From an uncultured Actinomycetes bacterium (lineage in GTDB: Bacteria; Actinomycetota; Acidimicrobiia; IMCC26256; PALSA-610): a stretch of 32,000 nt of DNA. The stretch lies in contig CAWIMB010000002.1 of NCBI GenBank assembly GCA_963837155.1, positions 3,177,526 to 3,209,525 of the forward strand. Reading direction: 5' to 3'. This document shows positions 378 through 29,994 of this stretch, one piece after another (position 1 is the stretch's first letter; every line of letters starts with the position of its first letter). Below the pieces are notes generated by a model, which was not told where the DNA came from, made no database searches, and saw nothing but the letters and a program-made list of their open reading frames with translations. Made by a program: the position numbers and the translations under genes.

Positions 378-1934
378 GTGCGTCATCGAGGTCTGATGCG
401 CGTCGCAGCCGTGTCGGTGCTGGTACCTGTGATCCTCGTGCTCCTTTCGAGCGTGGCGTTCGCAAGCAACATCGATGCCGGCGGTACAACGACCGAGGAG
501 CTCTCGCACACCGACATCAGCCTGAACTTGCTTTGGGTCGTGATCGGCGCGGTGCTCGTCATCTTCATGCAGGCGGGCTTCGCGCTCGTGGAAACCGGGT
601 TCTGCCGGGCGAAGCATGCGGCGCACGTCGTGTCGACGAACTTCGCGATCTTCGGCCTCGGGTTCGTCGCCTACTACGTCGTCGGCTACGCGCTGATGTT
701 CGGGGGCTTCTCGGCATCGGCGATCGGGCTCAATGCGGCGGGAGGCGCGTACGCGACACTGATCGGCTCCGGGAATTGGGTCTTCCTCTGGAAGGGCGGC
801 TTCTTCCTCCAGGGCCACGGCTACGACGTCAGCGCCGCCGCGTTCTTCTTGTACATGGTTGCGTTCATGGACACGACCGCCACGATCCCGACCGGCGCGA
901 TGGCCGAGCGGTGGAAGTGGAACAGCTTCGCGATGTGGGGCTTGTTCTGCGGAGCGATCTACTACCCGCTCTTCGGTGCGTGGACGTGGGGCGGCGGTTG
1001 GCTCTCCAAGCTCGGTGAGAGCGCGAGCATGGGCAACGGCTACGTCGACTTCGCCGGCTCGGGTGTCGTGCACATGATGGGCGGTGTCGCGGGCCTCGCG
1101 GGCGCGCTCGTGCTCGGACCACGGATCGGCAAGTACGGACCCGACGGGAAACCGCGCACCCTGGCCGGGCATCACATACCGATGGCCATGCTCGGGACGT
1201 TCATCTTGTTGTTCGGATGGTTCGGGTTCAACGCGGCGTCGACGTTTGCTGCCACCGATCACCGGTTCGCGCTCGTGGCCGCCAACACCGCGATCGCGGC
1301 TGCGTTCGGTGCGGTCATCGCGATGGTGTGGACGCAGTTGCGAACACCGAAGCACCAACCTGATCCGGGAATGATGGCCAACGGCATGCTTGCAGGGTTG
1401 GTGGGAATCACCGCCCCCTGCGCGTTCGTCCAACCCTTCGGCGCCGCGATCGTCGGCATCGTCGCCGGCGTGATCGTCGTCGAGTCCGTGTGGTTCTTCG
1501 AGAAGCGCGGCGTCGACGACCCGGTCGGCGCGATCTCGGTGCACGGAGTGTGCGGCGCCTGGGGTGTGCTCTCGGTGGGATTGCTGGCCGACGGCAGCTA
1601 CGGCGACGGCTGGAACGGCACCACCGGCACGGTCACCGGCTTGTTCTACGGCGGGGGTGGCGGTCAGCTCGCGGCCCAGCTGATGGGCGTGCTCACGATC
1701 GCGATCGTGATGGGCGGCATCGCCTACGCGTTCTTCGCCATCCAGAACACGCTCACCAAGGGCGGCATCCGCCCGACCCGCGAGGTCGAGCTGCAAGGCG
1801 TCGACCTTCCGGAGATGGGCGTGCTCGCCTATCCGTCGTTCTACGGCTCGAACCCGCACGTGGAGATGCCGACCGACGACGGCTTGGTCGAGCTTCCGGA
1901 ACCGGAGCCGGTCGGCCAAGAGCATTCGCGCTGA
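378..1934 (+). CDS. amt: ammonium transporter (Amt/MEP family)
   Basis: 518-aa ORF. GTG start lies 6 nt after GGAGGAGG (364-371). N-terminal signal-like helix, multiple TM segments, and family motifs AGFALVETGF and VDFAGSGVVHMMGG. Confidence 0.92.
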   Translation: MRHRGLMRVAAVSVLVPVILVLLSSVAFASNIDAGGTTTEELSHTDISLNLLWVVIGAVLVIFMQAGFALVETGFCRAKHAAHVVSTNFAIFGLGFVAYYVVGYALMFGGFSASAIGLNAAGGAYATLIGSGNWVFLWKGGFFLQGHGYDVSAAAFFLYMVAFMDTTATIPTGAMAERWKWNSFAMWGLFCGAIYYPLFGAWTWGGGWLSKLGESASMGNGYVDFAGSGVVHMMGGVAGLAGALVLGPRIGKYGPDGKPRTLAGHHIPMAMLGTFILLFGWFGFNAASTFAATDHRFALVAANTAIAAAFGAVIAMVWTQLRTPKHQPDPGMMANGMLAGLVGITAPCAFVQPFGAAIVGIVAGVIVVESVWFFEKRGVDDPVGAISVHGVCGAWGVLSVGLLADGSYGDGWNGTTGTVTGLFYGGGGGQLAAQLMGVLTIAIVMGGIAYAFFAIQNTLTKGGIRPTREVELQGVDLPEMGVLAYPSFYGSNPHVEMPTDDGLVELPEPEPVGQEHSR

Positions 1935-1945
1935 CCGACGACGAT

Positions 1946-1987
1946 GCCGAGGCGGGGACGCTCGACGAGGAGCGTCCCCGCCTCGGC
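1946..1987 (+). terminator. perfect 17-bp GC-rich stem with 8-nt loop between amt and the downstream regulator gene (terminator/attenuator-type hairpin without U-tract)
   Basis: GCCGAGGCGGGGACGCT (1946-1962), loop CGACGAGG, AGCGTCCCCGCCTCGGC (1971-1987). The arms are exact reverse complements. It begins 12 nt after the amt stop and ends 5 nt before the GAAGGAGG ribosome-binding site of the next gene. Confidence 0.5.
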
Positions 1988-2004
1988 GTCACGAAGGAGG
2001 GCAC

Positions 2005-2580
2005 GTGTCGACGGGCAACGCACCGTTCGGCTCTTGGACCAACGCGGACGTCGTCGTCCTTCGCTACCCGGAACAACGCGCCGAGGTCGAGCGACTGACG
2101 TTGCTCTCCGTCCCCCGGCTCCTTCTCGTCGAGCCGGGCGCGCCGCCGCCGGCCAGCGTGAGCTGTCTCGAGGACTGGGTGCGCATGCCCGCCGCCGACA
2201 CCGACGTGTGGGCCCGGTTGGAGGGCCTGGTCCATCGAGCACGCGAACATCCGGCGGTGCCCAGCCTCGACGGGCACGGGCAGCTCTCGTTCCGCGGGCG
2301 CCGGGTCTTCCTCTCCCCGACCGACGAGCGCATCGCGGCCGCGCTCGTCGCCGCGTTCGATCATGGCGTGGCCGAGGCGGAGCTGTTGCGTGACGTCTGG
2401 CCACACGGCGGGCATCACGGGCAGCTGCGGGTCGAGGTCTCGAGGCTCCGCAAACGGATCGCGCCGATCGGCCTGGGGATCACGGCGATCCGCGGCTTCG
2501 GGTACCGCCTGCACGGAGCCCTCCCGGCCGAGCTGTCAGAAATCCGTCATGGAACCGACGCTCTGCCGCCACAGAGGTGA
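2005..2580 (+). CDS. OmpR/PhoB-type winged-helix DNA-binding protein with a truncated, degenerate receiver-like N-terminus
   Basis: 191 aa, GTG start preceded by GAAGGAGG. The C-terminal half (LSPTDERIAAALVAAFDHGVAEAELLRDVW...LRVEVSRLRKRIAPIGLGITAIRGFGYRL) matches the trans_reg_C pattern. The N-terminal ~90 aa are too short for a full receiver and show no obvious phospho-acceptor context. Confidence 0.7.
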   Translation: MSTGNAPFGSWTNADVVVLRYPEQRAEVERLTLLSVPRLLLVEPGAPPPASVSCLEDWVRMPAADTDVWARLEGLVHRAREHPAVPSLDGHGQLSFRGRRVFLSPTDERIAAALVAAFDHGVAEAELLRDVWPHGGHHGQLRVEVSRLRKRIAPIGLGITAIRGFGYRLHGALPAELSEIRHGTDALPPQR

Positions 2581-2631
2581 CGCGTCGCAGAAATCTTTCG
2601 CAGCGAGCATGAGCAGGATCTGACCGACACC

Positions 2632-5382
2632 TTGCGGCCGCCCGGAGCTCAGCGCGTGGATGTGAACCGGATTCTGCTCGACATCCTCGTTGTGCTGCTC
2701 GCGGCCAAGCTCGCGGCCGAGCTGGCGGACCGGGTCGGCGTGCCGGCGGTCGTCGGTGAGATCGCTGCCGGCATACTCATCGGCCCGTCGGCGCTGGGGC
2801 TCGTGCACAGCAGCGAGGCACTCCAAACGCTCGCCCAACTCGGCGTGATCCTCCTCTTGTTGGAGGTCGGGCTCGAGATGGATCTCGGTGAGCTGAGCAG
2901 CGTCGGGCGGGCCTCGCTCGCAGTCGCGCTCGTCGGTGTCGTCGTCCCGCTGGGCTCCGGCGCGCTGACCGGCCTGGCGCTCGGCATGTCCGGCAAGGAG
3001 GCGTTGTTCGTCGGCGCCGCGCTTACCGCAACGAGCGTCGGCATCACCGCCCGCGTCTTCGGAGACCTGCGCGCGCTCGCGACGGTTGAGGCGCGCACCG
3101 TGCTCGGTGCTGCAGTCGCCGACGACATCCTCGGCCTCGTGATCCTCACCGTCGTGACCCGCATCGTTACCGGCGGATCGGTGTCCGCGTTGGGCATCAC
3201 CTGGGTCGTCGTCGTCGCGGTCGGGTTCGTCGTGCTGACGACTGCGGTCGGCCTGCGGCTCGCGCCGCCAATGTTCGCGTTCATCCGCCGTTATAGCCGT
3301 TCGTCCGGAACGCTCGTGGCGCTCGCGCTCGCGTTCACGTTGGGCATCTCGGAGCTTGCCCACGCCGCGCAGCTCGCGCCGATCGTGGGGGCGTTCGTGG
3401 CCGGACTCGTGCTCTCGCGCAGCACCGCGTCGGAGCGCGTCCGCAAGGAGCTCTCACCGGTCGGTCACCTGTTGATTCCGGTGTTCTTCTTGCAGATCGG
3501 GATCGACGCCGATGTCAGTCAGTTCGCGCGGCCGGCCGTCTTCGGCACCGCGGCCGCATTGTTGGTCGTCGCGCTGCTCGGCAAGCTCGCGTCGGCGGCC
3601 GGGATGATCGGATCGCCCGGCGATCGCCTGCTTGTCGGCATCGGCATGATTCCCCGCGGCGAGGTTGGGCTGATCTTCGCGACGCTCGGCCTCAACGAGC
3701 ACGTCTTCGGCCAGGACGTATACGCGGCCTTGCTGCTCGTTGTGCTGGTGACCACGGTCGGGACCCCGCCGTTCCTGCGCGCCCGGCTCCTCGCGCTCCG
3801 GGGACGGCACCGCGAAGCGAGCGGCGCCGTGATCCCCGCGGGTGGCACGATCGTGCGGATCACCGACGCGGGAACGGTGGAGTTGACCGGCGAGCCGCTG
3901 CCCAGCGACGCGCTCGTCGAGCGCGTTGACCGTCGCCCGCCTTGCCGAGCAGCATGCGCTTGGTCCGACCGTCCTCGAATGGTTGAACGACTTTCCGCCC
4001 GGACCGCGCCGGTGGGACGATCGCGCTCGTCACGAGCTGTGGCGCGTAATGCGAGAAGGCGGGCCACGATCGTGGCGGCTGCTCACCGCGTCGGGCGTGC
4101 TGCAACGAGCCCTGCCCGAGCTCGACGATGCCCTCGCACGCACGGCGCGGACTCGTTCGATCTCGACCCGCTCGCCGCGTTGCGTTTTCCGCGCCTGGAA
4201 TCGCTCCGCGCCGCATTGCCCGACCACGCGCCAGAGCTGCCGTCGGCGGACGCCGTGTTGCTCGCTGCGCTGATCCTCGACGTGTGCGACGACACAGATC
4301 TCGAGCCGGTGATCGTTGCCCGGCGTACCGTGCAGCGCCTCGATCTGGGAGCGCGCGTCGAGCACACGGTCGCGACGATCATCACCGATGCCGGGCTGCT
4401 CCCGGCCGCGATCCGTCGCATGGACGCGTTCGAGCAGGAACCGGTGCTGCATCTCGCGATGCATCTCGAAACGATCGACGAGCTCGACGCGCTCGCGTTC
4501 TTCACGCGTGCGACGTTCACCGGGGAACGCTGGGAACTGGACCGGCTGGATGCGCTCGTCAACCTCGTTCGGGAGACCCTCGAGCGGCCCGACCTCGTCG
4601 ACCGTGGTGCGTTGTACGAGATCGAACGCCGGCGCAACGAGGCGAGCAGTCGCTCGCTCCGAGCCGCCGTGCGAGAGCGTATTCACGCGGCGCCCCGTGA
4701 ATACGTCCTTGCGCACACCGCCGATGATCTGGTGCGGCACGCCCAGTTGTTGGAGCCGGCGCTGGGGCGCGGCGAAGTCCACGTGCGGGTCGATGCGCTT
4801 GCCGGACCCCGCGAATTCCGCGTCGAGATCGCGACACGCGACCAGATCGGGTTGATTGCACGCACGGCGCGCGTGCTCCTCGACGCGCAATGCTCGGTCG
4901 ACAGCGCGCTCGCCGCGACGTGGGGGGACGGCACCGCGCTCACGTCGTACCGCGTACACGCACCGAAGGAGCCGGGCGAGGAAGCACTCGTCGACACGCT
5001 CCGGGGGGGTCTCGACGCACCGCTCGAGGCGCCCGCGGCGCCGGAGATCGATGTGGAGTTCGACGACGACGGGTCGCCTTGGTACACCCGCTGCACCGCG
5101 AAAGCCGTCGACCGCCCCGGGCTTCTCCGCACGCTCGCGACTGCATTCGCAGTGGCAGAGGCGAACGTCCACTCGGCCCGGATCGTCACTGATCGCGATT
5201 TGGCGATCGACACGTTCGAGCTCACCAGCCGCACCGGCCGCAAACTCGACGATCAGGTGAAGGCGCGTATTCGCACGGTGTTGGCGCAGGGCATCGAACC
5301 GCCTCGCGGCCGTCTCCGCCGCTGGGGCTGGAAGCGCGGCGCCGTGCGATTATCGACGGGTGAGGTGGGGTCGGTCAGGTGA
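2632..5382 (+). CDS. CPA2-type cation:proton antiporter (aa 1-390) fused to a GlnD-like C-terminal module (degenerate HD region plus two ACT domains); contains an apparently off-frame internal segment
   Basis: The N-terminus (LAAELADRVGVPAVVGEIAAGILIGPS, about 12 TM segments, IPRGEVGLIF) is Kef/CPA2-like. The C-terminus has a GlnD-like helical region (LLAALILDVCDD where GlnD has HD), then ACT-like FRVEIATRDQIGLIARTARVLL and TRCTAKAVDRPGLLRTLATAFAVAEANV. The start could also be GTG 2656 or 2662. See the finding on the 3920-4150 frame excursion. Confidence 0.7.
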   Translation: MRPPGAQRVDVNRILLDILVVLLAAKLAAELADRVGVPAVVGEIAAGILIGPSALGLVHSSEALQTLAQLGVILLLLEVGLEMDLGELSSVGRASLAVALVGVVVPLGSGALTGLALGMSGKEALFVGAALTATSVGITARVFGDLRALATVEARTVLGAAVADDILGLVILTVVTRIVTGGSVSALGITWVVVVAVGFVVLTTAVGLRLAPPMFAFIRRYSRSSGTLVALALAFTLGISELAHAAQLAPIVGAFVAGLVLSRSTASERVRKELSPVGHLLIPVFFLQIGIDADVSQFARPAVFGTAAALLVVALLGKLASAAGMIGSPGDRLLVGIGMIPRGEVGLIFATLGLNEHVFGQDVYAALLLVVLVTTVGTPPFLRARLLALRGRHREASGAVIPAGGTIVRITDAGTVELTGEPLPSDALVERVDRRPPCRAACAWSDRPRMVERLSARTAPVGRSRSSRAVARNARRRATIVAAAHRVGRAATSPARARRCPRTHGADSFDLDPLAALRFPRLESLRAALPDHAPELPSADAVLLAALILDVCDDTDLEPVIVARRTVQRLDLGARVEHTVATIITDAGLLPAAIRRMDAFEQEPVLHLAMHLETIDELDALAFFTRATFTGERWELDRLDALVNLVRETLERPDLVDRGALYEIERRRNEASSRSLRAAVRERIHAAPREYVLAHTADDLVRHAQLLEPALGRGEVHVRVDALAGPREFRVEIATRDQIGLIARTARVLLDAQCSVDSALAATWGDGTALTSYRVHAPKEPGEEALVDTLRGGLDAPLEAPAAPEIDVEFDDDGSPWYTRCTAKAVDRPGLLRTLATAFAVAEANVHSARIVTDRDLAIDTFELTSRTGRKLDDQVKARIRTVLAQGIEPPRGRLRRWGWKRGAVRLSTGEVGSVR

Positions 5383-6549
5383 GAGCCGGCGGATCGCGAT
5401 CGCGCCGACCCCGCCTGCCAGCAGCGACGCCCCGAAGATCGCGACCTTGGCTGCGTCAAGCTGAGCGCCCGTGTAAGAGAGGTTGGCAACGAACAGCGAC
5501 ACGGTGAAGCCGATGCCCGCAAGAATGCCGACGCCGGCGATGTGAGCGAGGCGGATCCCGTCGGGGAGCCGCCCGACGCGCAAGCCGCAACCGAGCGCAG
5601 TGGCGCCGAAGATGCCGAGCGTCTTGCCGACGACGAGGCCGGCGACGATACCCCATGCGATGCGACTCGAGATGGCGTCCTTCAACGCGTCGCCGCTCAG
5701 CACGACGCCGGCGTTGGCCAGCGCGAACAGCGGTACGACGAGAAAGCTGGATACTGGGTGCAAGCGGCGCTCGAGCGACTCGAGCACGAGACGACCGCGT
5801 ACGGGGCGGGCCGGCATCAGCAAACCCAGCAACACGCCGGCGATGGTTGCGTGTATTCCCGACGAGTGGATGCAGATCCACAATCCGACGGCGGGCACGA
5901 CGTACAAGAGAGGTGATGCGACCGGGACCCGGCGCAAGGTCACCATGAGCACACAGATCGCGAGGGCCCCGCCCAGCCACGCAAGATTGATGTCCATCGA
6001 ATAGAAGCACACGATCACGACGATCGCGCCGACGTCGTCGACGATCGCCAGCGTCAAGAGGAACAGTCGAAGCTTGGTGGGCACCATCTCGCCGAGCAAT
6101 GCGAGCACACCCATTGCGAGCGCGATGTCAGTTGCGATGGGAATTCCCCAGCCGTGCCCCGCACCGGTTCCAGTATTGATCGACAGGAAGATCAATGCAG
6201 GCAGGATCATCCCGCCGCACGCTGCCAACACCGGGAGCGCCGCGGTGCGCGGGTCTCGCAGATCCCCGACAACCAGCTCGCGTTTTATCTCGAGAGCGAC
6301 GACGAAGAAGAAGATCGTCATCAGTCCGTCGTTGACCCAGTGACGCAGGTCCAGCGACGTCTCCAGGGGACCCATCCCGATCGTCACGACATGTGTCCAC
6401 ACGGTGTCGTAGCTGTCCGTGTCGATATTCGCCCAGAGCAGCGCCGCGAGTGCGGCAACGATGAGTACGACGCCGCTGAGGGCTTCGAGGGAGACGAACT
6501 CCTCGCCTACAGGAGACAAGTAGCGGCCCACGGCACGAATACGAACCAT
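5350..6549 (-). CDS. nhaA: Na+/H+ antiporter NhaA
   Basis: Motifs WVNDGLMTIFFFVVALEIKRE, GWGIPIATDIALAMGVLALLG and LLTLAIVDDVGAIVVI. The ORF-track ORF extends to 6888, but the NhaA-like sequence starts near the ATG at 6549 (alternative ATG at 6561). The upstream 110 codons are compositionally non-coding and overlap the SDR gene. Confidence 0.9.
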   Translation of the reverse strand: MVRIRAVGRYLSPVGEEFVSLEALSGVVLIVAALAALLWANIDTDSYDTVWTHVVTIGMGPLETSLDLRHWVNDGLMTIFFFVVALEIKRELVVGDLRDPRTAALPVLAACGGMILPALIFLSINTGTGAGHGWGIPIATDIALAMGVLALLGEMVPTKLRLFLLTLAIVDDVGAIVVIVCFYSMDINLAWLGGALAICVLMVTLRRVPVASPLLYVVPAVGLWICIHSSGIHATIAGVLLGLLMPARPVRGRLVLESLERRLHPVSSFLVVPLFALANAGVVLSGDALKDAISSRIAWGIVAGLVVGKTLGIFGATALGCGLRVGRLPDGIRLAHIAGVGILAGIGFTVSLFVANLSYTGAQLDAAKVAIFGASLLAGGVGAIAIRRLSPDRPHLTRR

Positions 6550-6640
6550 GCGGCGAGTCATCGATCCTCCGGGAGCGCGTGGCATTGAGCTGCCGACCAG
6601 GCTTCCCGGCACACCAGCGGTCATCGTATCCTGTCTGGAC

Positions 6641-7462
6641 GTGAGCGAATCCCGAACTGCCCTCACCACCGGTGCAAACTCGGGCATCGGTCTCGCGACC
6701 GTGCTCGAGCTCGCGCGCCGAGGCTTCCGGTCGGTCGGCACGGTTCGTTCGGAGGCGAAAGCTGAGATCGTCGAGAAGGCAGCCGCCGACGCGGGCGTCA
6801 CCGTCGAGACCGCGTTGCTCGACGTCACCGATGCCATCGGGTGCGCACGCATCATCGACGAATACCGGCCGTGGGGACTCGTGAACAACGCGGGCTACTC
6901 GATCACGGGCGCCATCGAAGACGTGAGCGATGACGAAGCGACCGCTGCGTTCGAGACGATGGTCCTCGCGCCGATGCGCCTCGCGCGCCATGCCTTGCTG
7001 CACATGCGGGCCGAGGGCGGCGGTCGGATCGTCAACATCTCGTCGATCTACGGGCGCACGACGACCCCGTTCACGGGCTGGTACCAAGGGGCGAAGCACG
7101 CGCTCGAGGGTCTGTCGGATGCGCTGCGCATGGAAGTCGCGCGCGACGGCGTACGCGTGATCCTCATCGAGCCCGGCGGCTTCAAGACCGGGATCTGGGA
7201 GGAGACCAGTCGCGAGGTCGCCAAACGCGAGGGTTCGCGCTACGACGGTGCGTACCAACGCACGCTCTCGAACACGCGCCTGTGGCAACCGTTCATGGGC
7301 GACCCGGTGCGCTGCGCGAAGGTGATCGCGTCGGCGCTCACGACGCGGCTTCCGCGCCCGCGTTACCTCGTCGGCTACGACGCACAGGCGCTCGCGTTGT
7401 GGAGCTCGCTCACGCCGACGCAGGTGAAGGACCGCATCGTCCGCATCTTCATGGCCCTCTAA
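6641..7462 (+). CDS. short-chain dehydrogenase/reductase (SDR)
   Basis: TGANSGIG dinucleotide motif right after the GTG at 6641, plus NNAG and the catalytic YQGAK. The longer ORF from 6548 adds a non-SDR leader and is less likely. Confidence 0.85.
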   Translation: MSESRTALTTGANSGIGLATVLELARRGFRSVGTVRSEAKAEIVEKAAADAGVTVETALLDVTDAIGCARIIDEYRPWGLVNNAGYSITGAIEDVSDDEATAAFETMVLAPMRLARHALLHMRAEGGGRIVNISSIYGRTTTPFTGWYQGAKHALEGLSDALRMEVARDGVRVILIEPGGFKTGIWEETSREVAKREGSRYDGAYQRTLSNTRLWQPFMGDPVRCAKVIASALTTRLPRPRYLVGYDAQALALWSSLTPTQVKDRIVRIFMAL

Positions 7463-7468
7463 GGGACA

Positions 7469-8265
7469 CTAGGACAAGGGCTCGCGCCCGGCACCGGGCG
7501 GGCCGGCGAACGCTTGCGCGATCTGCATCCACTGGGTGGCGAGCGGTCCGCTGATCGCGAGCTTGGTATCGGCGAGGTGCCGGCGTTGCGTGACGACCAA
7601 ACAGAAGTCGACGGCATCGCCTTCGACGCGGTCGGTCGCGCTTGCGTCGCCCCACGTCCACGTCCCACCGTCGGGGCTCTTGAGCGCCACGTACACGGGC
7701 GCGTCGGGAACGTTCAGGCCGCGGGAAACAAAACTGTTCGGCAGCGTGCGTACGCCGATGTGCGCGACATGACGCAGCGCAGGTGTGGTGGCGCGCGTGA
7801 CATCGAGCGCATCGGCCACATCCTGGCCGTGCGCCCACGTCTCCATGATCCGTGCGGTGAGCGACGACGGGATACTCATGTCGGGCCCGTACCAGGGCAC
7901 GCGTGTACTCGGGTCGAGGGCCAGCAACGCCTTCACCATCGCGGCGCGTGCGTCCCGGAACCACTGGTGGAGCGCGGCGATGTCGAGCGCGCGGCGCGTT
8001 TCGCAATTCCCTCGGTGAAGCCGTCGACATCAGCGAACTCCGAGAAGGCTGCGTCGCGCTCGGCGCGGAAGCGGTCGGGGTCGACGGCGGCGAGTGTTGC
8101 GGCTTCGTCGAAGTAGGCGAGGTGGCTGATCTGGTCGCGGATCGCCCAGCCCACCGCGGGTGTTGGACGTTCCCAATCAGCGACGTCGAGCGGTTCGAGC
8201 AGCCGCTCGAGCTCATACGTCTCCGCACCGAGATCGTCGGCGAGCTGCGAGGGGTCGACCGGCAC
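7469..8265 (-). pseudogene. TIGR03084-like / mycothiol-dependent maleylpyruvate-isomerase-family (DinB-like) protein split by one frameshift
   Basis: Two adjacent minus ORFs (7933-8265 and 7469-7939). The N-terminal part has WERPTPAVGWAIRDQISHLAYFDEAA. Reading the third frame across 7985-8000 gives a continuous ...GIAKRAA/ALDIAALHQWFRDARAAMVKALLALDPSTRVPWYGP. The tail STSPRSTSGSGTHAPRW of the first ORF is off-frame. Confidence 0.7.
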
Positions 8266-8282
8266 GCAAGTACGTTATAGCC

Positions 8283-9443
8283 ATGGACTTCGCCGAGAGC
8301 AGTGAGCACGAGATGCTGCGCGCGGCAGTGCGCGACATCGCGGCCGACTATGGGCACGAGTACTTCGCCGAGAAGTCGAACACCGGCGAAAAGGCCGATG
8401 AGTTGTGGAAGGCCGTCGCCGACCACGGTTTCCTCGGCGTGCACTTGCCCGAGGAATACGGCGGCGGCGGTGGCGGCATGAGTGACCTCGCGATCGTGTG
8501 CGAGGAGCTTGCGGCGCAAGGTTGTCCGCTGCTGCTGATCCTCGTGTCACCTGCGATCTGCGGCGAGCTGATCACGCGCTTCGGCACCGACGCCCAGAAG
8601 GAGCGTTGGCTGCGACCGATGGCCGCGGGCGCCAAGATGGTGTTCGCGATCACCGAACCGGACGCAGGTTCGAACAGCCACAACCTTTCCACGACCGCGA
8701 AGCGCGACGGTGACGTCTACCGGCTGCGCGGTACCAAGACGTTCATCTCCGGCGTCGACGAAGCGCCGTTGATGGTGGTGGTGACCCGCACCGGCACCGA
8801 TCCCGATAGCGGCCGGGGCCGCCTGTCGCTGTTCGTTGTCGACACCGAGGCGCCTGGCTTGGAGCGCACGCTGATCCCGATCGAGATCAAGGCGCCCGAG
8901 AAGCAGTTCCAGCTGTTCTTCGACGACGTCGAAGTTCCGGCCGATCGACTGCTCGGAGAAGAGGGCGAGGGGCTGCGGCAAGTGTTCTTCGGTCTCAACC
9001 CGGAGCGCATCATGAGCGCGGCGATCTGCACCGGCGTCGGGCGCTACGCGCTCGATCGCGCATCCGCGTACGCGAACGAGCGCCAGGTATGGGACGTGCC
9101 GATCGGCCGGCACCAGGGCGTGGCACATCCGCTCGCGATCGCAAAGATCGAACTCGAGCTCGCCCGGTTGATGACGGCCAAAGCGGCGTGGATGCACGAC
9201 CACGCAACCGACCGGGTCGCCGCCGGCGAAGCGGCGAACATGGCGAAGTACGCGGCGGCCGAAGCCGGGCTGCGCTGCCTCGACACCGCGATCCAGACGC
9301 ACGGCGGCAACGGCATGGCAATGGAATACGGCCTTGCCGACCTTTGGGGCACCCTGCGCCTGCTGCGCATCGCGCCAGTGAGCCGCGAGATGGTGCTGAA
9401 CTTCGTCGCGCAGCAATCGTTGGGCTTGCCGAAGTCGTACTGA
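8283..9443 (+). CDS. acyl-CoA dehydrogenase
   Basis: ATG at 8283 (MDFAESSEHEMLRAAVRDIA...). Typical ACAD layout with FAITEPDAGSN, a middle beta domain and C-terminal IQTHGGNGM. Confidence 0.88.
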   Translation: MDFAESSEHEMLRAAVRDIAADYGHEYFAEKSNTGEKADELWKAVADHGFLGVHLPEEYGGGGGGMSDLAIVCEELAAQGCPLLLILVSPAICGELITRFGTDAQKERWLRPMAAGAKMVFAITEPDAGSNSHNLSTTAKRDGDVYRLRGTKTFISGVDEAPLMVVVTRTGTDPDSGRGRLSLFVVDTEAPGLERTLIPIEIKAPEKQFQLFFDDVEVPADRLLGEEGEGLRQVFFGLNPERIMSAAICTGVGRYALDRASAYANERQVWDVPIGRHQGVAHPLAIAKIELELARLMTAKAAWMHDHATDRVAAGEAANMAKYAAAEAGLRCLDTAIQTHGGNGMAMEYGLADLWGTLRLLRIAPVSREMVLNFVAQQSLGLPKSY

Positions 9444-9456
9444 GCGGCCTGCGACG

Positions 9457-9949
9457 CTATCGACCGGGCGGGAACAGGTGCCGCACCGGCACCTTGACGC
9501 GCGGCGCCAGTGCATCGGCGACCATCGCGCGGTGACAGGTCGCGGGATCGGTCTCGACGCACAGCAGGGTGGGACGTTCGAACGGCACCAGACCGGCCGC
9601 GATCGCGTCGAGGTCGGCAGACGCCAGTACGTCGGCCCGGTAGCGACGCACGTACTCCGGCGCGAGCGCTTCCCGGGCCCGGAGGCCGGCGCCGCGACGG
9701 TCGATGTCGTGTTGGAGCGCAAGAAGATCGGGTGGGGGCGCGAGCTCCAAGAGGTGCTCGTACGCGATGTCGTTCTGTGCGAGGCACTCGACCAATCGCC
9801 GGGCGTTCGCGAACGCGGTACTGTGCGCCGCGCACACCTCGCCGCCGGCGCACATCGACGACGAGGTCGACGCGCGTGGCGCGAAGTCGCTGGATGAAAC
9901 CGGCTTCGTCGAACCCGTAGACACCGATCGTGCAGAGTTCCTGCGTCAT
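9457..9949 (-). pseudogene. DUF488-family protein interrupted by one frameshift
   Basis: The N-terminus [44 protein letters not shown] lies in one frame (ATG 9949-9947, overlapping the upstream TGA as ATGA). The rest, AFANARRLVECLAQNDIAYEHLLELA...LLCVETDPATCHRAMVADAL (DUF488 hallmark C-E...CHR), lies in the frame of ORF 9457-9924. The switch is near 9815-9825. Confidence 0.65.
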
Positions 9950-10770
9950 TCTCCCGTTGGTCCGTCGAAGCGGGGCTCTCGCTTCTCGGTGTGCGACGCG
10001 AGACCCTCGCGCACGTCGGGGCCGCCGAAGCCGTAGAACTCGTACGCGAGCGACGCATCGAGGATCGCCGACTGGGCGCGATACCAGTTGTTCAACGTTT
10101 GCTTGGTGTAGCGGATCGCCGCTTCCGCGCCGCCGCTCAGCTTCGTCGCGACGTCGAGCGCGGTGGCGTGCACCTGGTCGTCGTCGACGCACAACGAAAC
10201 CAACCCGATCCGCTCGGCTTCTTCGCCGGTGAGCGTCTCGCATGTCAGCAAGTAGTACTTGGCCTTGGCCATGCCACACAGCAACGGCCAGCAGATCGCG
10301 GCGTGGTCGCCGGCCGCGATCCCGAGGCGCGTATGGCCGTCGATGATCCGAGCCGTTCGGGCGACGATCGAGACATCGGCGAGAAGTCCGGCGGCGAGAC
10401 CCGCGCCGACCGCGGGACCATGGATCGCGGAGACGATCGGCTTCGCGCAGTTGATGACGTTGAACACGAGGTCACACGCTTCGCGCAGCACACACGTGCG
10501 CGCCGCGTAGTCGTTGAGCATGTTGTCGAGCAGGTCGAAGCTGCCGCCCGAGGAGAATGCCCGTCCCGCGCCTTGTAGCAACGCGACGTTCGTCTCGGGA
10601 TCGCGATCGATCGCGAGCCACACGTCGGCGAGCTCACGGTGCACGTCGGGCCCGACCACGTTGAGGCCGGGGGTGTCGAGGGTGATTCGCAGCACGCCCT
10701 GGGAGGGGCGATCGAAGCGCAGGTGGGAGAACTCGTCGTAGCGATCGGGCACGCACGAAAGAACTACCAC
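9946..10770 (-). CDS. enoyl-CoA hydratase/isomerase (crotonase) family protein
   Basis: 274 aa with crotonase signatures [10 protein letters not shown] and [13 protein letters not shown] start at 10770. Confidence 0.88.
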
Positions 10771-10807
10771 GCGGCTCGGACGCGCGCCTCATGAAGCCAC
10801 CGCTCGT

Positions 10808-11638: not shown

Positions 11639-12078
11639 GCCTCGACGATTACCCAGCCGCGCATCCCGTACGCGAGATGACCCGGCAAGTGGCACGCGAA
11701 CTCGTAGCGACCCGGAGCTTCGAAGCGGTAGAAGGTCTCACCGATATCGAGGGCCTTGACCGACACCTCGCCGGGCACCGGAGGGTGCGCGGCTTCGTTG
11801 CCCTGTTGGTGCCTGCGGTGCACTGCGGCGTCACCAACGATGAACTCGTGGGCGATCGGATCGTCGTTGTGCACGAGGAACTTCACGAGCGTGCCCGGAC
11901 GCACGTGCAGCGTCGAGAATGAGAAATGACTGTGGCGAATCCCGACGTCGACGGTGACGAGGCCGGGGCCGAGCGGCGTGTCCCCTTCCGCGTGCGCGGA
12001 CCCTTCGAGTGCGTATCCGCCGATCGCGGTCGCGGCCGCAACCACAACCGCGAGAGTGATCCGTCCGAGAAGCCTCAC
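11635..12078 (-). CDS. exported cupredoxin-like (plastocyanin/azurin-type) copper protein
   Basis: 147 aa from a GTG at 12078 that overlaps the upstream stop (GTGA). N-terminal signal/anchor VRLLGRITLAVVVAAATAIGG and type-1 copper ligand pattern H...FACHLPGHLAYGM. The ORF-track extension to 12525 overlaps the upstream gene and is not credible. Confidence 0.75.
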   Translation of the reverse strand: MRLLGRITLAVVVAAATAIGGYALEGSAHAEGDTPLGPGLVTVDVGIRHSHFSFSTLHVRPGTLVKFLVHNDDPIAHEFIVGDAAVHRRHQQGNEAAHPPVPGEVSVKALDIGETFYRFEAPGRYEFACHLPGHLAYGMRGWVIVEA

Positions 12079-13133
12079 GCCGCAGCTCCCAGGTTCGGGC
12101 GGCGCCGGCCGAACACTCCGGCGATGGCGAACGTCAGCGCCCCGGCTCCCACTGCCGCCGCGACGGGCCACAGATTCCAGCCGGTGTCGGTCACGATCGG
12201 ACGCGCTTGGTCTGCCTGCACGCCAGTGTCGGTGAGGCGCGGCACCGAGTTGCTGTGCGTCGACATCGCGAGGTCGTAGTCCAGCTTCCCGGCGGTCGTG
12301 TCGAGCGGGAGATACGTGAACCACATGCGATCGGGGACCCAGCCCATGCCCTTGTCGGTGCGCAGATCGGAGAGCAGCTCCGGCGACGCCCACTCGTGAC
12401 GGGACAGCGCCAGACCGGGCCCGCCCGCCAACAGCTTGGGCTCGCTGTCGGTGAGGATGAACACGTCTGCATTCACGGCCTCGTTCTTGTCGAGACCGAG
12501 GCCGAGGATGCGTAGCGGCACCCACGGTTCACGGGTCGGCATCGTGAGCATGATCGGTGTGCCGTCACCGGAGCTCTGACCAAGCCGGCGAGCGCGCGCC
12601 GCGTCGAAACGTGCCGCCATGAACACGGGGCTGCGTTGCGAGTAGAAGTCGAGCACTTCCGGCGCGTCGGGCGAGAGCAAGAAGCCGTGATCGGTTGCCC
12701 ACTTGCCGACTTCCGCGCCACCGCCGCGCAAGACCGTGATGTCGAGCGCGTCGATCTTCTTTTGGATCAGCACCTGGGCACCTTCCGTCTTCGCAGCAGC
12801 ACGATCCTCGGCGAAAAACGCTTGGGGGACCGGTGGTGCGACCTCACGCTGCAGGCGTTGCAGCGTCCAGTCGCCGCCCCGTTCGACGTCGGTCGGCACC
12901 GCGGGCAACGGCACGATCGAGCCGAGCTCCTTGCCCTCGCCGGTGAACTGGAACGACGTCACGTAGCGTTCGACGCCGTCGTGATACGCGGCGAGTGTCG
13001 AAGTGCGCGTGAGACGGATGGTGCCGTTTTCCCCGACCAGACCGGCACAGGCGACTGCCGGCGCCGCGGCGCCGATCACCACTGCCGGTACGGCCACGGC
13101 CAGCGCCGCCCATCGAAGAGCTCGTGTGTGCAT
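12075..13133 (-). CDS. DUF2330-like exported protein with C-terminal membrane anchor
   Basis: 352 aa. Signal peptide ending in a Cys (AAPAVACAGLV), a long soluble region and a C-terminal hydrophobic helix (LWPVAAAVGAGALTFAIAGVF) followed by RRRP. The layout matches my recollection of DUF2330 proteins; the family assignment is unverified. Confidence 0.5.
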   Translation of the reverse strand: MHTRALRWAALAVAVPAVVIGAAAPAVACAGLVGENGTIRLTRTSTLAAYHDGVERYVTSFQFTGEGKELGSIVPLPAVPTDVERGGDWTLQRLQREVAPPVPQAFFAEDRAAAKTEGAQVLIQKKIDALDITVLRGGGAEVGKWATDHGFLLSPDAPEVLDFYSQRSPVFMAARFDAARARRLGQSSGDGTPIMLTMPTREPWVPLRILGLGLDKNEAVNADVFILTDSEPKLLAGGPGLALSRHEWASPELLSDLRTDKGMGWVPDRMWFTYLPLDTTAGKLDYDLAMSTHSNSVPRLTDTGVQADQARPIVTDTGWNLWPVAAAVGAGALTFAIAGVFGRRRPNLGAAA

Positions 13134-13252
13134 GCGATCCTCCGAATGCTCTGAAGCTGGGGGTCCGACGACCGCCGCCTGCCGGGAGTTCCCATCACCG
13201 GCAAATCCGCCCGAGCGGTGGCTAGCGTGCGGCCCGGAACGGAGGAACGGCG

Positions 13253-14227
13253 ATGGCTCGGATTGGTCTCGTGCTCGGCGCCGGCGGCGCGGTCGGGCAC
13301 GCCTTCCACACCGGCGTCCTCTCCGCGCTCGCGGACACCGCCGGCTGGGACGCTCGCGACGCCGAGGTCATCGTCGGCACGTCAGCCGGCTCATTGGTCG
13401 GTGCCCTGCTGCGCGCCGGCCTCTCGGGTACGGATCTCGCCGCCCGGACCAAGGACATGCCGCTGTCCGCCGAAGGCCGGCGGCTCGTGACGATCGCCGA
13501 AACCGCGCGTGGCGACCAACCACCGATTCCTTCCCGGCCTCCCCGCGCGTCACGCACCGGCGTACCCACGATGGCGGCACCCGGCGCGTTCGTGCACGCC
13601 GCCCGGCGACCCTGGAACGTGCGGCCGGGAGCACTGGCAGCCGCGGCGATGCCCGCTGGCCGCGTCCCTACAGAGCTGATCTCCACCGGATTGCGGCCGC
13701 TGTTCGATCACTGGCCCGAAGGGACCTTGTGGATCAACGCCGTCGAGCTCGAGTCGGGCCGGCGCGTGACGTTCGGTCGCAGCCGACGTGTCACCACCGA
13801 TGTCGCCACTGCGGTCGCGGCGTCGTGCGCGATCCCCGGCTTCTTCGCCCCCGTCTCCATCGGAGACGTTCGCTATGTCGACGGCGGTGTCCACTCGCCG
13901 ACGAACGCCGATCTCGTTGCCGGCCTCGGCCTCGATCTGGTGGTGGTGTCGTCGCCAATGTCGATCGCCCGCAACGGCATGCGGTTCGCTCCTGATCAAC
14001 CGGCGCGGCAGTTCTCCCGGATCACGCTCGCGCGCGAGGTGCGGCGGCTACGCAAAGCGGGAACGCCGGTCTTGACCTTCCAACCCACCGACACCGTCCT
14101 CGACGTCATGGGTTGGAACGCGATGGATCCGTCACGGCGGGCCGACGTCTCCCGCAGGGCGCACACGTCGGCGGTGCGCCGGCTCGAACGCGCCGACGCG
14201 CGCGACCGGGTGGCATTGCTCACATAG
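13253..14227 (+). CDS. patatin-like phospholipase (single-domain, CapV-sized) no. 2
   Basis: 324 aa. GGAGGAA ribosome-binding site before the ATG. Motifs LGAGGAVGHAFHTG, GTSAGS and the catalytic Asp in YVDGG. Confidence 0.85.
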   Translation: MARIGLVLGAGGAVGHAFHTGVLSALADTAGWDARDAEVIVGTSAGSLVGALLRAGLSGTDLAARTKDMPLSAEGRRLVTIAETARGDQPPIPSRPPRASRTGVPTMAAPGAFVHAARRPWNVRPGALAAAAMPAGRVPTELISTGLRPLFDHWPEGTLWINAVELESGRRVTFGRSRRVTTDVATAVAASCAIPGFFAPVSIGDVRYVDGGVHSPTNADLVAGLGLDLVVVSSPMSIARNGMRFAPDQPARQFSRITLAREVRRLRKAGTPVLTFQPTDTVLDVMGWNAMDPSRRADVSRRAHTSAVRRLERADARDRVALLT

Positions 14228-14256
14228 CCGTGTCCGACGCCGCCTCCGTCTCGTCC

Positions 14257-14313
14257 CTAGAGCCCCGACCGGCAACGTTTGCCGCGTTCCAACGTCACCG
14301 GACGGGGCTCTAG
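14257..14313. terminator. nested inverted repeat between convergent patatin and caspase-TIR genes (candidate bidirectional terminator)
   Basis: CTAGAGCCCCG (14257-14267) pairs with CGGGGCTCTAG (14303-14313). An inner hairpin CGGCAA-CGT-TTGCCG lies at 14270-14284. The outer right arm overlaps the TAG stop of the minus-strand gene. Confidence 0.4.
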
Positions 14314-16496: not shown

Positions 16497-16511
16497 TACG
16501 CCACTCCGTCG

Positions 16512-16716: not shown

Positions 16717-18111
16717 TCAGCTCGAGGGGGGCTTCTCCTCGGCGAGCTTGAGCAGCTCGGTCATGCCGGCTTCGACCCCGCCGCACAGCACCCCAATGTC
16801 GCTCGCGGTGTCGTAGTCGCCGGTGACGCCATAGTTGAGCATCCCGTTGTAGGAGAAGATTGCGACGCCGACGCGAACTTGGCTCGCGAGCGGCACGAAC
16901 GGGAACGCCTCGAGCATCGTGCGGCCGCACGCGTACAGCTGCATCTGGGGACCGGGCACATTCGTGGTGACGGTGTTGACATTGCGCTGCGGGATGCGCA
17001 TGGCAACGCGAGTGCCGAGTGCGAGCAGCATCGACGGCGCAAACCCCGAAAGGGAGGTCAACACTTCGCCGGCGACGGCCTGCTTCGACTCCTTGAGGCC
17101 ATCCATTTGCGCGCGGATGGCCGCCAGGCGCTCCGCGGGATCGGCGACGCCGACCGGCAGCTCGGCGATCATCGCCGACACGCGATTGTTGTACGTGCCG
17201 CGTTCGCCCGGCGTGCGTACCGAGACCGGTACCAATGTGCGTACGACGCGACCCTCGACGTTCTCGTCACGCGAGAGCAGCAGGTCGCGAAAACCGCGCG
17301 TGAGGACTGTCAGCACGATGTCATTCACCGTGCCGCCGAGCGCGCGCCGGACCGTCTTCACATCGGCGAGCGTCGTGCGCGCCCAGTCCCAGCGTCGGTG
17401 CGGGCCGATCGGTCCGTTGAGCGTCGACACTTCCGTCGGCCGCACGACACCCGTCCACGCGCGCAGGCCGCGCGCGGTGTCGCCAACCGATCGCATCATC
17501 TGACGGGGCGCGCGCGTCGATGCCCGGGCTGCTCGGAGTTGCTCGTACGGACTCGCGATGAGATCGACGATCGCGTCGCGCACGAGCCGCACGTTGCCCG
17601 GCTCGGCTTCCGGCTCCCACATGTCGGGAAGCGGGCGCGCCGGTTCGGGTTCCGGGTCGAGCACCACCGTGAGCAGATCGGTGCCGGACACGCCGTCGAC
17701 CATGCAGTGATGCACCTTCGACACGAGCGCCCAGTGCCCCTGGTCGAGGCCTTCGACCATCCACATCTCCCACAGCGGCTTGTGGCGGTCGAGATGCTGG
17801 GCCATCACCCGGCCGACGAGGTTCCGCAGCTCGCGGTCACCGCCGGGCGACGCCAGCGCGGTGTGCCGGAGGTGGTATCCGAGGTTGAAGTGCGGATCGT
17901 CGACCCACAATGGGCGGCCGAGCTGCAGCGGTACGAACCGCACCTTTTGGCGGTAGCGCGGGACGGCCGGCAACTTGCCCGAGACCATCGCCTCGAACTC
18001 TTCGTACAGGGGCGGTGGACCGGCGAAGACAGCCACGGAACCGATGTGCATCGGGCTCACGGCGTCCTCGACGTGCAGGAACGACGCGTCTAGTGGGCTC
18101 ATTCGGTCCAT
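16717..18111 (-). CDS. wax ester synthase/diacylglycerol acyltransferase (WS/DGAT) paralogue 1
   Basis: MDRMSPLDASFLHVED N-terminus and active-site HHCMVDG. ATG 18111 is preceded by AAGGGGG; the ORF track starts 5 codons earlier at a TTG. Confidence 0.88.
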   Translation of the reverse strand: MDRMSPLDASFLHVEDAVSPMHIGSVAVFAGPPPLYEEFEAMVSGKLPAVPRYRQKVRFVPLQLGRPLWVDDPHFNLGYHLRHTALASPGGDRELRNLVGRVMAQHLDRHKPLWEMWMVEGLDQGHWALVSKVHHCMVDGVSGTDLLTVVLDPEPEPARPLPDMWEPEAEPGNVRLVRDAIVDLIASPYEQLRAARASTRAPRQMMRSVGDTARGLRAWTGVVRPTEVSTLNGPIGPHRRWDWARTTLADVKTVRRALGGTVNDIVLTVLTRGFRDLLLSRDENVEGRVVRTLVPVSVRTPGERGTYNNRVSAMIAELPVGVADPAERLAAIRAQMDGLKESKQAVAGEVLTSLSGFAPSMLLALGTRVAMRIPQRNVNTVTTNVPGPQMQLYACGRTMLEAFPFVPLASQVRVGVAIFSYNGMLNYGVTGDYDTASDIGVLCGGVEAGMTELLKLAEEKPPSS

Positions 18112-18185
18112 TGCGACCCCCTTCAAGGCATCCGGCGAGCGTAGCGGCCACCTGGCATCACTGCTGACGGGAACCTACTGCTGGT

Positions 18186-20850: not shown

Positions 20851-20982
20851 GAAGCGAGACTACCCAGCGTGTCCGCCAAGGCACTTTGGGAGCGAGAAGC
20901 GCCGAACCCTTACGATTCCCGCCATGCAAGACGACAGCGCAGCGACCGGAGTGGAGCGAAGCGTGGAGTCGACCCGATAAGC

Positions 20983-22704: not shown

Positions 22705-22808
22705 GCTGGCCTCCCGCGTGCGGTGCTACCGCCTCGGCGTTTACGATCCGCCGCGCAACACTCTTCCATGACCGGCGCGGGCGAGTCGACACAACAAACG
22801 GGGGAAAC

Positions 22809-26445: not shown

Positions 26446-26594
26446 GGCGAACCCTCACCCCCGCGGTGGGAGGGCCGTCAGTCTGTTCTCGACACCTTCG
26501 GCACGCAAGGTGGAAGCCGTTGGTACTGGCAAACAGAGGCGCCAATTCGTTAGCGTCCACTGCAGGACACCAGGCGGCAGCGGAGAGGGTTCAC

Positions 26595-29964: not shown

Positions 29965-29994
29965 GTCCCGGTTCCCGCTGGGGACAATTACCCA

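Follow-up and report, generated by a model that had tools for sequence, protein, structure and literature searches.

A CPA2 antiporter joined to a GlnD-derived tail beside an ammonium transporter gene in uncultured Acidimicrobiia

Architecture of the cluster and of the fusion protein

In the textbook account of ammonium-uptake control, the PII protein GlnK plugs the transporter AmtB and GlnD acts upstream as the glutamine-sensing enzyme, and the classical actinobacterial arrangement of the corresponding genes is amtB-glnK-glnD. The stretch of DNA considered here comprises 32,000 nt from an uncultured member of the Acidimicrobiia (assembly GCA_963837155.1, contig CAWIMB010000002.1, positions 3,177,526 to 3,209,525) and is hereafter called the window. 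At 378-5382 it carries a nitrogen cluster in which an amt gene is followed by a strong hairpin, a gene for a 191-aa protein and an open reading frame (ORF) of 916 codons, which combines a cation/proton antiporter with a tail derived from GlnD. A preliminary description of the window, made from its letters alone, had named these four elements, and all of them are present at the following positions:

378-1934, + strand: amt, ammonium transporter of a divergent Amt subfamily, 518 aa (PF00909, E 4e-98, 329 bits)
1943-1990, + strand: perfect G+C-rich hairpin with a 21 bp stem and a 6-nt loop, immediately 3' of the amt stop codon (-61.6 kcal/mol)
2005-2580, + strand: atypical OmpR/PhoB-type regulator, 191 aa, with a receiver remnant (aa ~15-85) and a winged helix (aa ~93-171; PF00486)
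2656-5382, + strand: fusion gene, CPA2 antiporter::pseudo-GlnD; ORF open from 2632 (916 codons), likely start GTG at 2656
2698-3777, + strand: NapA-like CPA2 cation/proton antiporter domain with 13 transmembrane helices (PF00999, TIGR00932)
3022-3042, 3112-3126 and 3577-3594, + strand: antiporter motifs TATS, DD motif (AVADD) and conserved Lys (LGKLAS)
3889-5382, + strand: cytoplasmic GlnD-derived module made up of a helical region, a pseudo-HD region and two ACT domains (TIGR01693 after frame repair)
3919-4143, + strand: out-of-frame segment between a 1-nt insertion at ~3919 and a 1-nt deletion at ~4142/4143 (DNA alignment with loci L001 and L002)
4150-4293, + strand: pseudo-HD core with DSFDLDP (4150-4170) and LILDVCDD (4270-4293) at the places of the H...HD metal-ligand motifs (alignment)
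4813-4965, + strand: ACT domain 1 with the D-x-x-G-L-I ligand-loop motif RDQIGLI (Pfam ACT; residues 709-785 of the P0002 model)
5074-5292, + strand: ACT domain 2 with motifs DRPGLL and IDTFEL (PF01842, aa 824-882, E 1e-10; residues 799-878 of the P0002 model)

The probable start codon of the fusion gene is GTG at 2656, which has GGAG on its 5' side, rather than TTG at 2632. The deposited 908-aa fusion protein (P0001, 100% identical to the window ORF) starts at 2656 as well, and the homologs begin with MDVN.

The membrane half is a CPA2 domain of the NapA type, and Na+ (or Li+)/H+ exchange is its most likely activity as judged from the sequence. It matches PF00999 over aa 23-382 (E 9e-63, 212.7 bits against a cutoff of 26.2) and the CPA2 model TIGR00932 with E 5.5e-55 and 186.8 bits, which lies under the cutoff of 238.3 for that subfamily model. 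In the AlphaFold2 (AF2) model of an intact homolog (P0002, 64-sequence alignment; predicted local distance difference test, pLDDT, 86.9; predicted template modelling score, pTM, 0.61), the transporter helices extend across residues 1-389. The best match of the antiporter among Protein Data Bank (PDB) structures, as searched with Foldseek, is NapA (5bz2; 39% identity, template modelling score 0.92, E 1e-17), and KefC follows as the next structural match with just 20% identity. In an alignment of 16 fusion sequences (the window and 15 homologs), both D164 and D165 of the AVADD motif and K318 are invariant. A DD or ND motif marks Na+/H+ exchangers and a QD motif K+/H+ exchangers, and K+ binding of KefC is lost upon the change Q155D (PMC11150392). 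The fusion carries DD instead of QD, is closer to NapA than to KefC and gives no TrkA_N/RCK match in Pfam, which rules out a Kef-type identity; on the KefC and KefB equivalog profiles it reaches 80 and 70 bits as compared to cutoffs of 752 and 804. Of the earlier assignment as a Kef-like CPA2 antiporter, only the CPA2 part was thus retained.

NapA from Thermus thermophilus (PDB 5bz2, 4bwz) is hence the nearest solved structure to the membrane half and has the DD motif as well as the conserved Lys in common with it. The solved NapA chain of 384 residues, however, covers the membrane domain alone, whereas the fusion carries about 500 extra regulatory residues. In this respect the protein resembles the glutathione-gated K+/H+ exchangers KefC and KefB, where a CPA2 core of 13 transmembrane helices is likewise covalently joined to a cytoplasmic tail; sensing of a ligand is carried out by RCK/KTN in the Kef proteins and, by analogy, may be the task of the tail in the fusion. 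The two systems differ in that this tail is GlnD-derived (pseudo-HD and two ACT domains) and not a Rossmann-fold RCK domain, and in that amt and an OmpR-type regulator, instead of kefF/kefG, make up its genomic neighbourhood.

The tail had been described earlier as resembling the C-terminal half of GlnD with two ACT domains, and a profile search of this part bears that out, since it matches the GlnD equivalog model TIGR01693 and Pfam ACT, the latter in two stretches. As deposited, the tail aligns to positions 461-849 of the 850 in TIGR01693 (E 3e-22, 78.6 bits); after repair of the frame it aligns to positions 325-849 (E 3e-25, 88.6 bits; cutoff 519.4), that is, to all of GlnD beyond the nucleotidyltransferase domain. 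BLASTP against a genuine GlnD encoded at a related locus (L016) gave a single collinear alignment of 445 residues with 27% identity, extending from the GVLxRxLPE motif to the C-terminus. Collinearity from profile position ~325 onwards therefore includes the helical linker with GVLxRxLPE, the HD-fold region, ACT1 and ACT2, and two beta-alpha-beta-beta-alpha-beta units are found in the P0002 model for the latter two. In contrast to GlnD, the nucleotidyltransferase domain is missing, with the CPA2 domain at the N-terminus in its place, the linker between ACT1 and ACT2 is shorter, and the metal-binding and catalytic residues of HD are substituted. Both PF08335 (GlnD_UR_UTase) and PF01966 (HD) match the GlnD of L016, but not the fusion. 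When four fusion proteins were aligned with genuine GlnD (alignment A5), all of the HD-signature positions HRFTVDRH, LLHDVGK, LVRHHLL and VGDS were found to be substituted in the four proteins. DSFDLDP stands opposite HRFTVDRH and LILDVCD opposite LLHDVGK, a substitution that is family-wide, with Leu-Asp replacing the His-Asp of HD in at least 90% of 64 fusion sequences; the loss of the nucleotidyltransferase domain and of the HD ligands noted earlier is therewith confirmed. Conserved surface motifs are retained in the pseudo-HD region (DxDPL, VARRTVQRLDLG), and the ACT domains keep their D-R-x-G-L-L ligand loops and a conserved Phe in the alignment. A sequence search of the PDB returned no solved GlnD structure, only Rel/RelA ACT domains being matched, and the Foldseek matches of the full-length model were dominated by the transporter half.

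In GlnD, uridylyltransferase (UTase) activity resides in the N-terminal domain and uridylyl-removing (UR) activity in the HD domain, and the enzyme has one glutamine site (PMC4285133); its ACT domains are needed for the glutamine response according to Zhang et al. 2010, as cited in PMC11190351. The tail of the fusion is a predicted pseudo-enzyme, which keeps the sensory part of GlnD without the catalytic residues. Plant ACR proteins are another case of GlnD-type ACT sensors grafted onto other proteins. Likewise, a GlnD-like ACT domain serves as glutamine-responsive module on an unrelated protein in the Chlamydomonas alpha-amylase AMA2, rendering this algal enzyme glutamine-activated (PMC11190351). 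ACR proteins and AMA2 are, however, soluble eukaryotic proteins with ACT domains only, whereas in the fusion the whole part of GlnD following the nucleotidyltransferase domain, dead HD included, sits on a bacterial membrane transporter.

The repair of the frame mentioned above concerns a segment at the beginning of the tail. Alignment of the DNA with the two closest loci (L001, L002) shows exactly one extra and one missing base in the window copy, between which codons ~430-504 of the ORF (75 codons) are out of frame; they read as an Arg/Ala-rich peptide without alignment to homologs. In a frame different from the rest of the ORF, positions 3920-4141 encode the conserved peptide SALTVARLAE...PPGPRRWDD...RSWRLLTASGVLQRALPELDDALAR, and all 15 homologs share the block ...ALTVARLAE..GP.LLEWL..FPPGPRRWDD...RSWRLLTASGVLQRALPELDDAL... 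at this position. The shifted block is 88% identical to P0002, as compared to 78% for the gene overall. Within the same window, a gene of the MDMPI_N (mycothiol maleylpyruvate isomerase) family at 7469-8274 (- strand) is split by a single frameshift, with one ORF (7933-8274) covering profile positions 2-80 and another (7469-8029) positions 75-140, which is independent evidence for indel errors or pseudogenes in the assembly. Moreover, 11 of the 27 loci from MFD metagenome-assembled genomes show the fusion gene spread across several frames (L007, L010, L019, L024, L028, L036, L043, L046, L062, L072 and L076); of the 53 other loci only L038 scored in the same way, and there the match falls on another CPA2 gene. 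It would seem that indel errors are systematic in the MFD data set and give rise to truncated or chimeric protein predictions. As the shifted block shows no damage, another gene of the window is split too and frame splits recur in the MFD loci, the two compensating indels of the window are probably assembly errors as well, as far as sequence comparison can tell. Two exactly compensating indels only 225 nt apart are, on the other hand, unusual for random errors, and the deposited P0001 agrees with the frame-shifted ORF throughout. Neither indel lies in a homopolymer run, and exact compensation is what selection for an open frame would favour. If the indels were real, a conserved helical segment of 75 residues would have been replaced by an Arg/Ala-rich peptide in a decaying or functionally altered allele. 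We consider this unlikely, given that the conserved peptide can still be read from the block in a frame of its own, free of stops and decay, that the second frameshifted gene and the MFD splits point the other way, and that a wrong frame staying open across 75 codons is unsurprising at 70% G+C. In either case, the deposited protein of this genome contains 75 out-of-frame residues.

Conservation of the cluster and its relation to amtB-glnK-glnD

Homologs of the fusion were searched among 5.8 billion proteins, which yielded more than 120 clusters of 880-930 aa with PF00999 and ACT, 49-78% identical to the query over 93-99% of its length and, where named at all, called "cation:proton antiporter" or "KefB". 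In an exhaustive protein library clustered at 50% identity, the tail alone matched 144 clusters at E <= 1e-30. Additionally, GTDB species representatives were scanned with tail-specific patterns, giving 128 relatives, the best 80 of which were examined as loci; all of these 80 belong to uncultured Acidimicrobiia/Actinomycetota and are metagenome-assembled genomes. In 76 of the 80 loci the CPA2 half lies directly upstream in the same gene, and contig ends truncate three of the four exceptions. The sole genuinely unfused version is found at L059 and consists of 566 aa with an ACT domain and no CPA2 half. A stop or gene boundary between the antiporter and GlnD halves, which would have undone the earlier description, is ruled out, the homologs being single ORFs of about 900 aa. 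The unfused module of L059 (9800-11500, + strand) has a GAF-HisKA kinase fragment and a HAMP-GGDEF-EAL protein as its neighbours (7471-8697 and 11770-14478).

Gene neighbourhoods were compared by tblastn of the window proteins against the 80 loci, with counts limited to the 59 loci having sufficient flanking DNA. An Amt ortholog is the immediate neighbour of the fusion in 42 of them (27 upstream, 15 downstream), so that the linkage of orthologous fusions to amt, raised in the preliminary description as a point to be checked, does hold across the family. The regulator stands directly upstream of the fusion in 28/59 loci, and the Amt paralog, the regulator or both are found beside it in 57/59. 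With the exception of two loci, the cluster genes are co-directional, and the orders amt-reg-fusion, amt-fusion, reg-amt-fusion, reg-fusion-amt, fusion-amt-reg and reg-fusion all occur. Since linkage is kept despite this shuffling of gene order, the genes are taken to form a functional unit.

The Amt protein of the window shows the twin-His pore motifs DFAGSGVVH and VHGVCGAWG. Its score on TIGR00836 (330 bits) is slightly below the cutoff of 343, which places it in a divergent subfamily. It is 54-89% identical to the Amt proteins adjoining the fusion in other loci, as opposed to 31-43% for the canonical AmtB encoded at L016, L018, L042 and L071, and hence is a paralog distinct from canonical AmtB. 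At L016, both kinds of gene can be seen side by side in the order amtB, glnK, glnD, regulator, fusion, amt. The canonical operon (L016, 2422-6693) encodes an AmtB with 31% identity to the window Amt and 445 bits on TIGR00836, above the cutoff, a GlnK matching the PII model NF008111 (147 bits, E 1.8e-43) and a GlnD of 878 aa (592 bits on TIGR01693 against the cutoff of 519), in which PF08335, HD and ACT are all present. The same trio adjoins the cluster at L042 (1-4025), with 545 bits for its GlnD on TIGR01693, and the canonical amtB products of both loci are 31-33% identical to the window Amt. L016 and L042 thus hold two Amt paralogs and two GlnD-derived proteins next to each other. At L018, a second amt and glnK lie nearby. 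L007, L012 and L069 each have a PII gene directly 3' of the fusion, and a PII-like match of a divergent kind is present in L004.

Given the canonical trio beside the cluster in L016 and L042 and the PII genes behind the fusion in three further loci (L007, L012, L069), the cluster is best described as an additional module with its own Amt paralog, which by the gene content of its relatives would stand alongside amtB-glnK-glnD. This contradicts the preliminary description, in which the OmpR-type gene had taken the place of glnK and the fusion that of glnD; remodelled in this manner, the classical operon of the lineage would leave amt without PII signalling. In favour of such a replacement, the succession of amt, a small gene and a GlnD-like gene mimics the order amtB-glnK-glnD, the tail is clearly GlnD-derived, and the 32-kb window contains no PII gene, as that description had noted (tblastn with two PII queries, best E 1.5). 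With the complete canonical operon beside the cluster in two relatives, a cluster Amt so distant from canonical AmtB, a shuffled gene order that does not fit replacement in place, and PII genes right behind the fusion, a replacement nevertheless has to be regarded as highly improbable. The cluster and the classical operon do share the clustering of an ammonium transporter gene with a GlnD-type nitrogen sensor behind GlnR-box-like operators; they differ in that the cluster has no PII gene, another Amt paralog and an enzymatically dead sensor that forms one protein with an antiporter.

The small regulator, candidate operators and the hairpin behind amt

The 191-aa protein encoded between amt and the fusion starts with GTG, with GAAGGAGG just 5' of it. 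Its sole recognised domain is Trans_reg_C (PF00486; aa 98-169, E 3e-7, 30.7 bits against a cutoff of 26.2), and the same holds for its family of 172 proteins of 160-190 aa. No Response_reg domain was found by Pfam in the window protein or in the 120 relatives listed. The N-terminal part contains the conserved family motifs VVVLRWPE, PRLLLVEP and EDWxRLPxxDxDxRARLxAL; in our reading of the alignment, the former two would map to receiver strands beta1 and beta3, with a Glu at the phospho-acceptor position. An AF2 model (pLDDT 87.6) shows a short beta-alpha-beta-beta-alpha N-domain with three strands and two helices, followed by the winged helix. In Foldseek and profile searches, full-length OmpR/PhoB regulators were matched across both domains, among them PhoP of Mycobacterium tuberculosis, VanR, PrrA, KdpE, NsrR and GlnR of M. 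tuberculosis. A complete receiver with acidic pocket and phospho-acceptor Asp was not found in the protein. It is hence an OmpR-type regulator with a cut-down, non-phosphorylatable receiver, as the earlier reading of a winged-helix protein with truncated receiver had it.

GlnR, the nitrogen regulator of actinobacteria, is itself an orphan OmpR-type protein. Both proteins have an OmpR-type winged helix and an atypical, phosphorylation-independent receiver in common, and the candidate operator of the cluster consists of direct repeats of the gTnAc/GaAAc kind with 11-nt spacing. The present regulators, however, measure 160-190 aa in total as compared to 255-256 aa for solved GlnR chains, and their receiver is shrunk to about 70-85 residues (three strands, two helices). 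GlnR does not stand nearer to the window regulator than PhoP, VanR or NsrR do.

Upstream of amt, the following elements can be distinguished:

213-325, + strand: GlnR-box-like operator with direct 5-nt half-sites at 11-nt spacing (enrichment and cross-locus alignment)
213-228, 266-282 and 299-325, + strand: half-sites GTAAC-n6-TTCAC, GTCAG-n6-GTCAG and GAAAC-n6-GAGAC-n6-GAAAT
336-341, + strand: -10-like hexamer TACCGT, found at the same place in related promoters (TACCGT/TACGTT)
366-373, + strand: ribosome-binding site of amt, GGAGGAGG

Upstream of Amt orthologs, the words CGTAAC, GTAACA, GAAACA, CGAAAC and GTTCAC show a 6- to 38-fold enrichment, and in the aligned promoters GAAAC-n6-GTnAC-n6-GAAAC is followed by the -10-like element TACCGT/TACGTT. 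The pattern of three half-sites (b-a-b) has 10 matches in 2.7 Mb, 8 of which lie 75-100 nt before an Amt ortholog. In the units led by the regulator (34 loci), a strict regular expression for three half-sites gave almost no matches upstream of the regulator genes; direct inspection revealed that TTCAC-n6-GAAAC-n6-GAAAC-n10/11-TACCGT precedes the regulator in most loci, the 25 GAAAC-GAAAC spacings all being 11 nt. From TACCGT it is 6-9 nt to the start codon in ATG GAC GTC (M-D-V-V-V-L...) of the unit-leading regulator, and these genes (L019, L022, L025, L028, L041, L057 and others) have no Shine-Dalgarno sequence, the arrangement being located ~35 nt upstream of them. Such an arrangement would represent a promoter type in which the repeats take the place of a -35 element and the mRNAs are leaderless. 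In half-sites and spacing, the repeats equal gTnAc-n6-GaAAc, the consensus of the GlnR box in actinobacteria; the genes that Streptomyces venezuelae induces when starved of nitrogen include some for Na+/H+ antiporters (both PMC3087709). At L059, a b-a-b GlnR-like box is located at 9482, ~320 nt upstream of the unfused GlnD-like gene.

Unlike the unit-leading orthologs, the regulator gene of the window encodes a 14-residue N-terminal extension and has a Shine-Dalgarno sequence, which directly follows the hairpin on its 3' side. It has no promoter of its own and must therefore be reached by read-through from amt. The hairpin itself (1943-1990) is much more stable than expected by chance (z = -7.1; 0 of 200 shuffles equally stable). 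It has no T-run (U-tract) after the stem and was not picked up by a terminator scan. Across 51 loci, a hairpin of <= -40 kcal/mol lies 3' of the amt stop codon in 75%, as compared to 9% of random segments (Mann-Whitney p = 5e-18), the structure being kept across loci without conservation of the sequence; this conservation of structure after amt speaks for a function. A repeated element is ruled out, as the hairpin sequence is unique within the window, and no known RNA or riboswitch was found above Rfam gathering thresholds in the amt leader or in the hairpin, where only chance-level hairpin-like matches occurred at E <= 1. Hence, the hairpin is probably a partial or attenuating terminator or a 3'-end stabiliser. 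In the gene order of the window, it would reduce read-through from amt into the regulator and antiporter genes.

Possible function of the module and neighbouring genes

On balance, we favour the view that the cluster is a nitrogen-regulated accessory module in which the pseudo-GlnD sensor, probably by binding glutamine, gates cation/proton antiport alongside Amt. The tail would bind glutamine or a closely related nitrogen-status metabolite and, depending on this ligand, would attach to the transporter core or come off it, in the manner of the RCK tail of KefC. In this way, nitrogen status would switch antiport while the partner Amt imports ammonium. Transcription would start from promoters in which GlnR-box-like repeats with 11-nt spacing substitute for the -35 element, and the module as a whole would act beside amtB-glnK-glnD, not in its stead. 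Such gating is plausible because KefC has a fused tail which blocks the transporter core: its RCK tail contacts the transporter module and inhibits transport (PMC11150392). Here, we infer the ligand, the gating, the transported ion, the pairing of regulator and operator and the physiological purpose from the features given above, and several points weigh against the view taken. ACT domains bind many ligands, and from the sequence glutamine cannot be singled out among them. At a pTM of 0.61, the AF2 model gives no reliable prediction of how the tail is oriented towards the membrane domain. The DD motif would leave K+ or NH4+ possible as substrate, and an electrogenic Na+/H+ antiporter has no obvious role beside ammonium uptake, so that the physiological rationale is weak. 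Furthermore, 17 of the 59 loci have no Amt within 10 kb, which makes the link to Amt frequent and not obligatory, and the boxes could be bound by the ordinary GlnR of the genome instead of the linked regulator.

Two other readings deserve consideration with regard to ligand and transported ion. In one of them, the dead HD region binds modified GlnK, so that the antiporter is coupled to the signalling state of PII and not to glutamine. The UR activity of GlnD does map to its HD domain (PMC4285133), the pseudo-HD region keeps strongly conserved surface motifs, and PII genes adjoin the fusion in the loci named above. These amount, however, to only about 4/59 loci, and the best conserved part of the tail is formed by the ACT domains, on which the glutamine response depends. 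A reader of PII is therefore rather improbable, even if both ideas are compatible with each other. The other reading assigns NH4+ (or K+) instead of Na+ to the antiporter, which would then be a glutamine-controlled ammonium/proton exchanger, serving as relief valve or retrieval system paired with Amt. This would explain the conserved linkage to a dedicated Amt. A precedent for such transport within CPA2 is AmhT of Bacillus pseudofirmus, which reportedly carries NH4+ and K+. Set against it are the 39% identity to the Na+/H+ antiporter NapA and the invariant DD motif, as the K+-selective KefC uses QD and its K+ binding is abolished by the exchange of Q for D. Ammonium/proton exchange is accordingly the less probable assignment, with a somewhat better standing than the PII reader.

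A wider proposal, to be taken as speculative when compared with the glutamine-gated module favoured above, would cover these cases together. The tail could be a stand-alone receptor for glutamine or modified PII, gating a cation/proton or ammonium/proton antiporter, possibly together with the Amt paralog. In that case, membrane ion and ammonium fluxes of the Acidimicrobiia might be tied to nitrogen status without the involvement of a GlnK plug, within a small regulon under a miniature GlnR-like regulator and leaderless promoters without -35 element.

Within the literature library searched, no publication on a CPA2-ACT/GlnD fusion or an Acidimicrobiia amt-antiporter cluster was found. Here, the sensory part of GlnD, now devoid of its two enzymatic activities, is joined directly to a secondary transporter, and this arrangement is kept beside a dedicated Amt in more than 100 species of an abundant, almost uncultured class of soil and water bacteria. 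If the tail binds glutamine, the fusion would set the first example of gating by a nitrogen metabolite among CPA-family transporters and a clean case of a pseudo-enzyme reused as receptor, and its tail, as a soluble domain that is already at hand, would help to locate the glutamine site of GlnD. The module also raises the question of what purpose a coupling of ammonium uptake with Na+/H+ or NH4+/H+ exchange would serve, and it offers a compact candidate regulon made up of a mini-GlnR, 11-nt-spaced boxes and leaderless transcripts.

Convergent with the fusion gene, an nhaA Na+/H+ antiporter gene is located at 5350-6888 (- strand), the 3' ends of both genes overlapping by ~33 nt. The NhaA domain begins at residue 130 of this ORF, and the real start is thus probably further downstream. 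As nhaA adjoins the fusion in only 2 other loci among the 80, its membership in the module is ruled out. In Pfam scans, the other ORFs of the window fall to lipid metabolism, a TIR-domain protein and a WD40 protein. Three paralogs of wax-ester synthase/diacylglycerol acyltransferase, an MMPL transporter and a patatin-like lipase are encoded at 16717-18174 (- strand), 25069-26454 (- strand), 28531-29994 (- strand), 22665-25058 (+ strand) and 26968-28524 (+ strand), with genes for an acyl-CoA dehydrogenase (8130-9443) and an enoyl-CoA hydratase (9946-10788) near them; this is a neighbourhood of neutral-lipid storage and turnover and unrelated to the nitrogen cluster. Overlapping ORFs with high G+C at third codon positions, none with a Pfam match, occupy both strands at 18186-20859, where more frameshifts may be hidden. 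The WD40-repeat protein is encoded at 30845-32000 (+ strand) and cut by the window end. At 14310-16511 (- strand), finally, an ORF of 733 aa has a central TIR_2 domain (aa 405-519) as its only recognised domain and may code for a signalling or defence protein.

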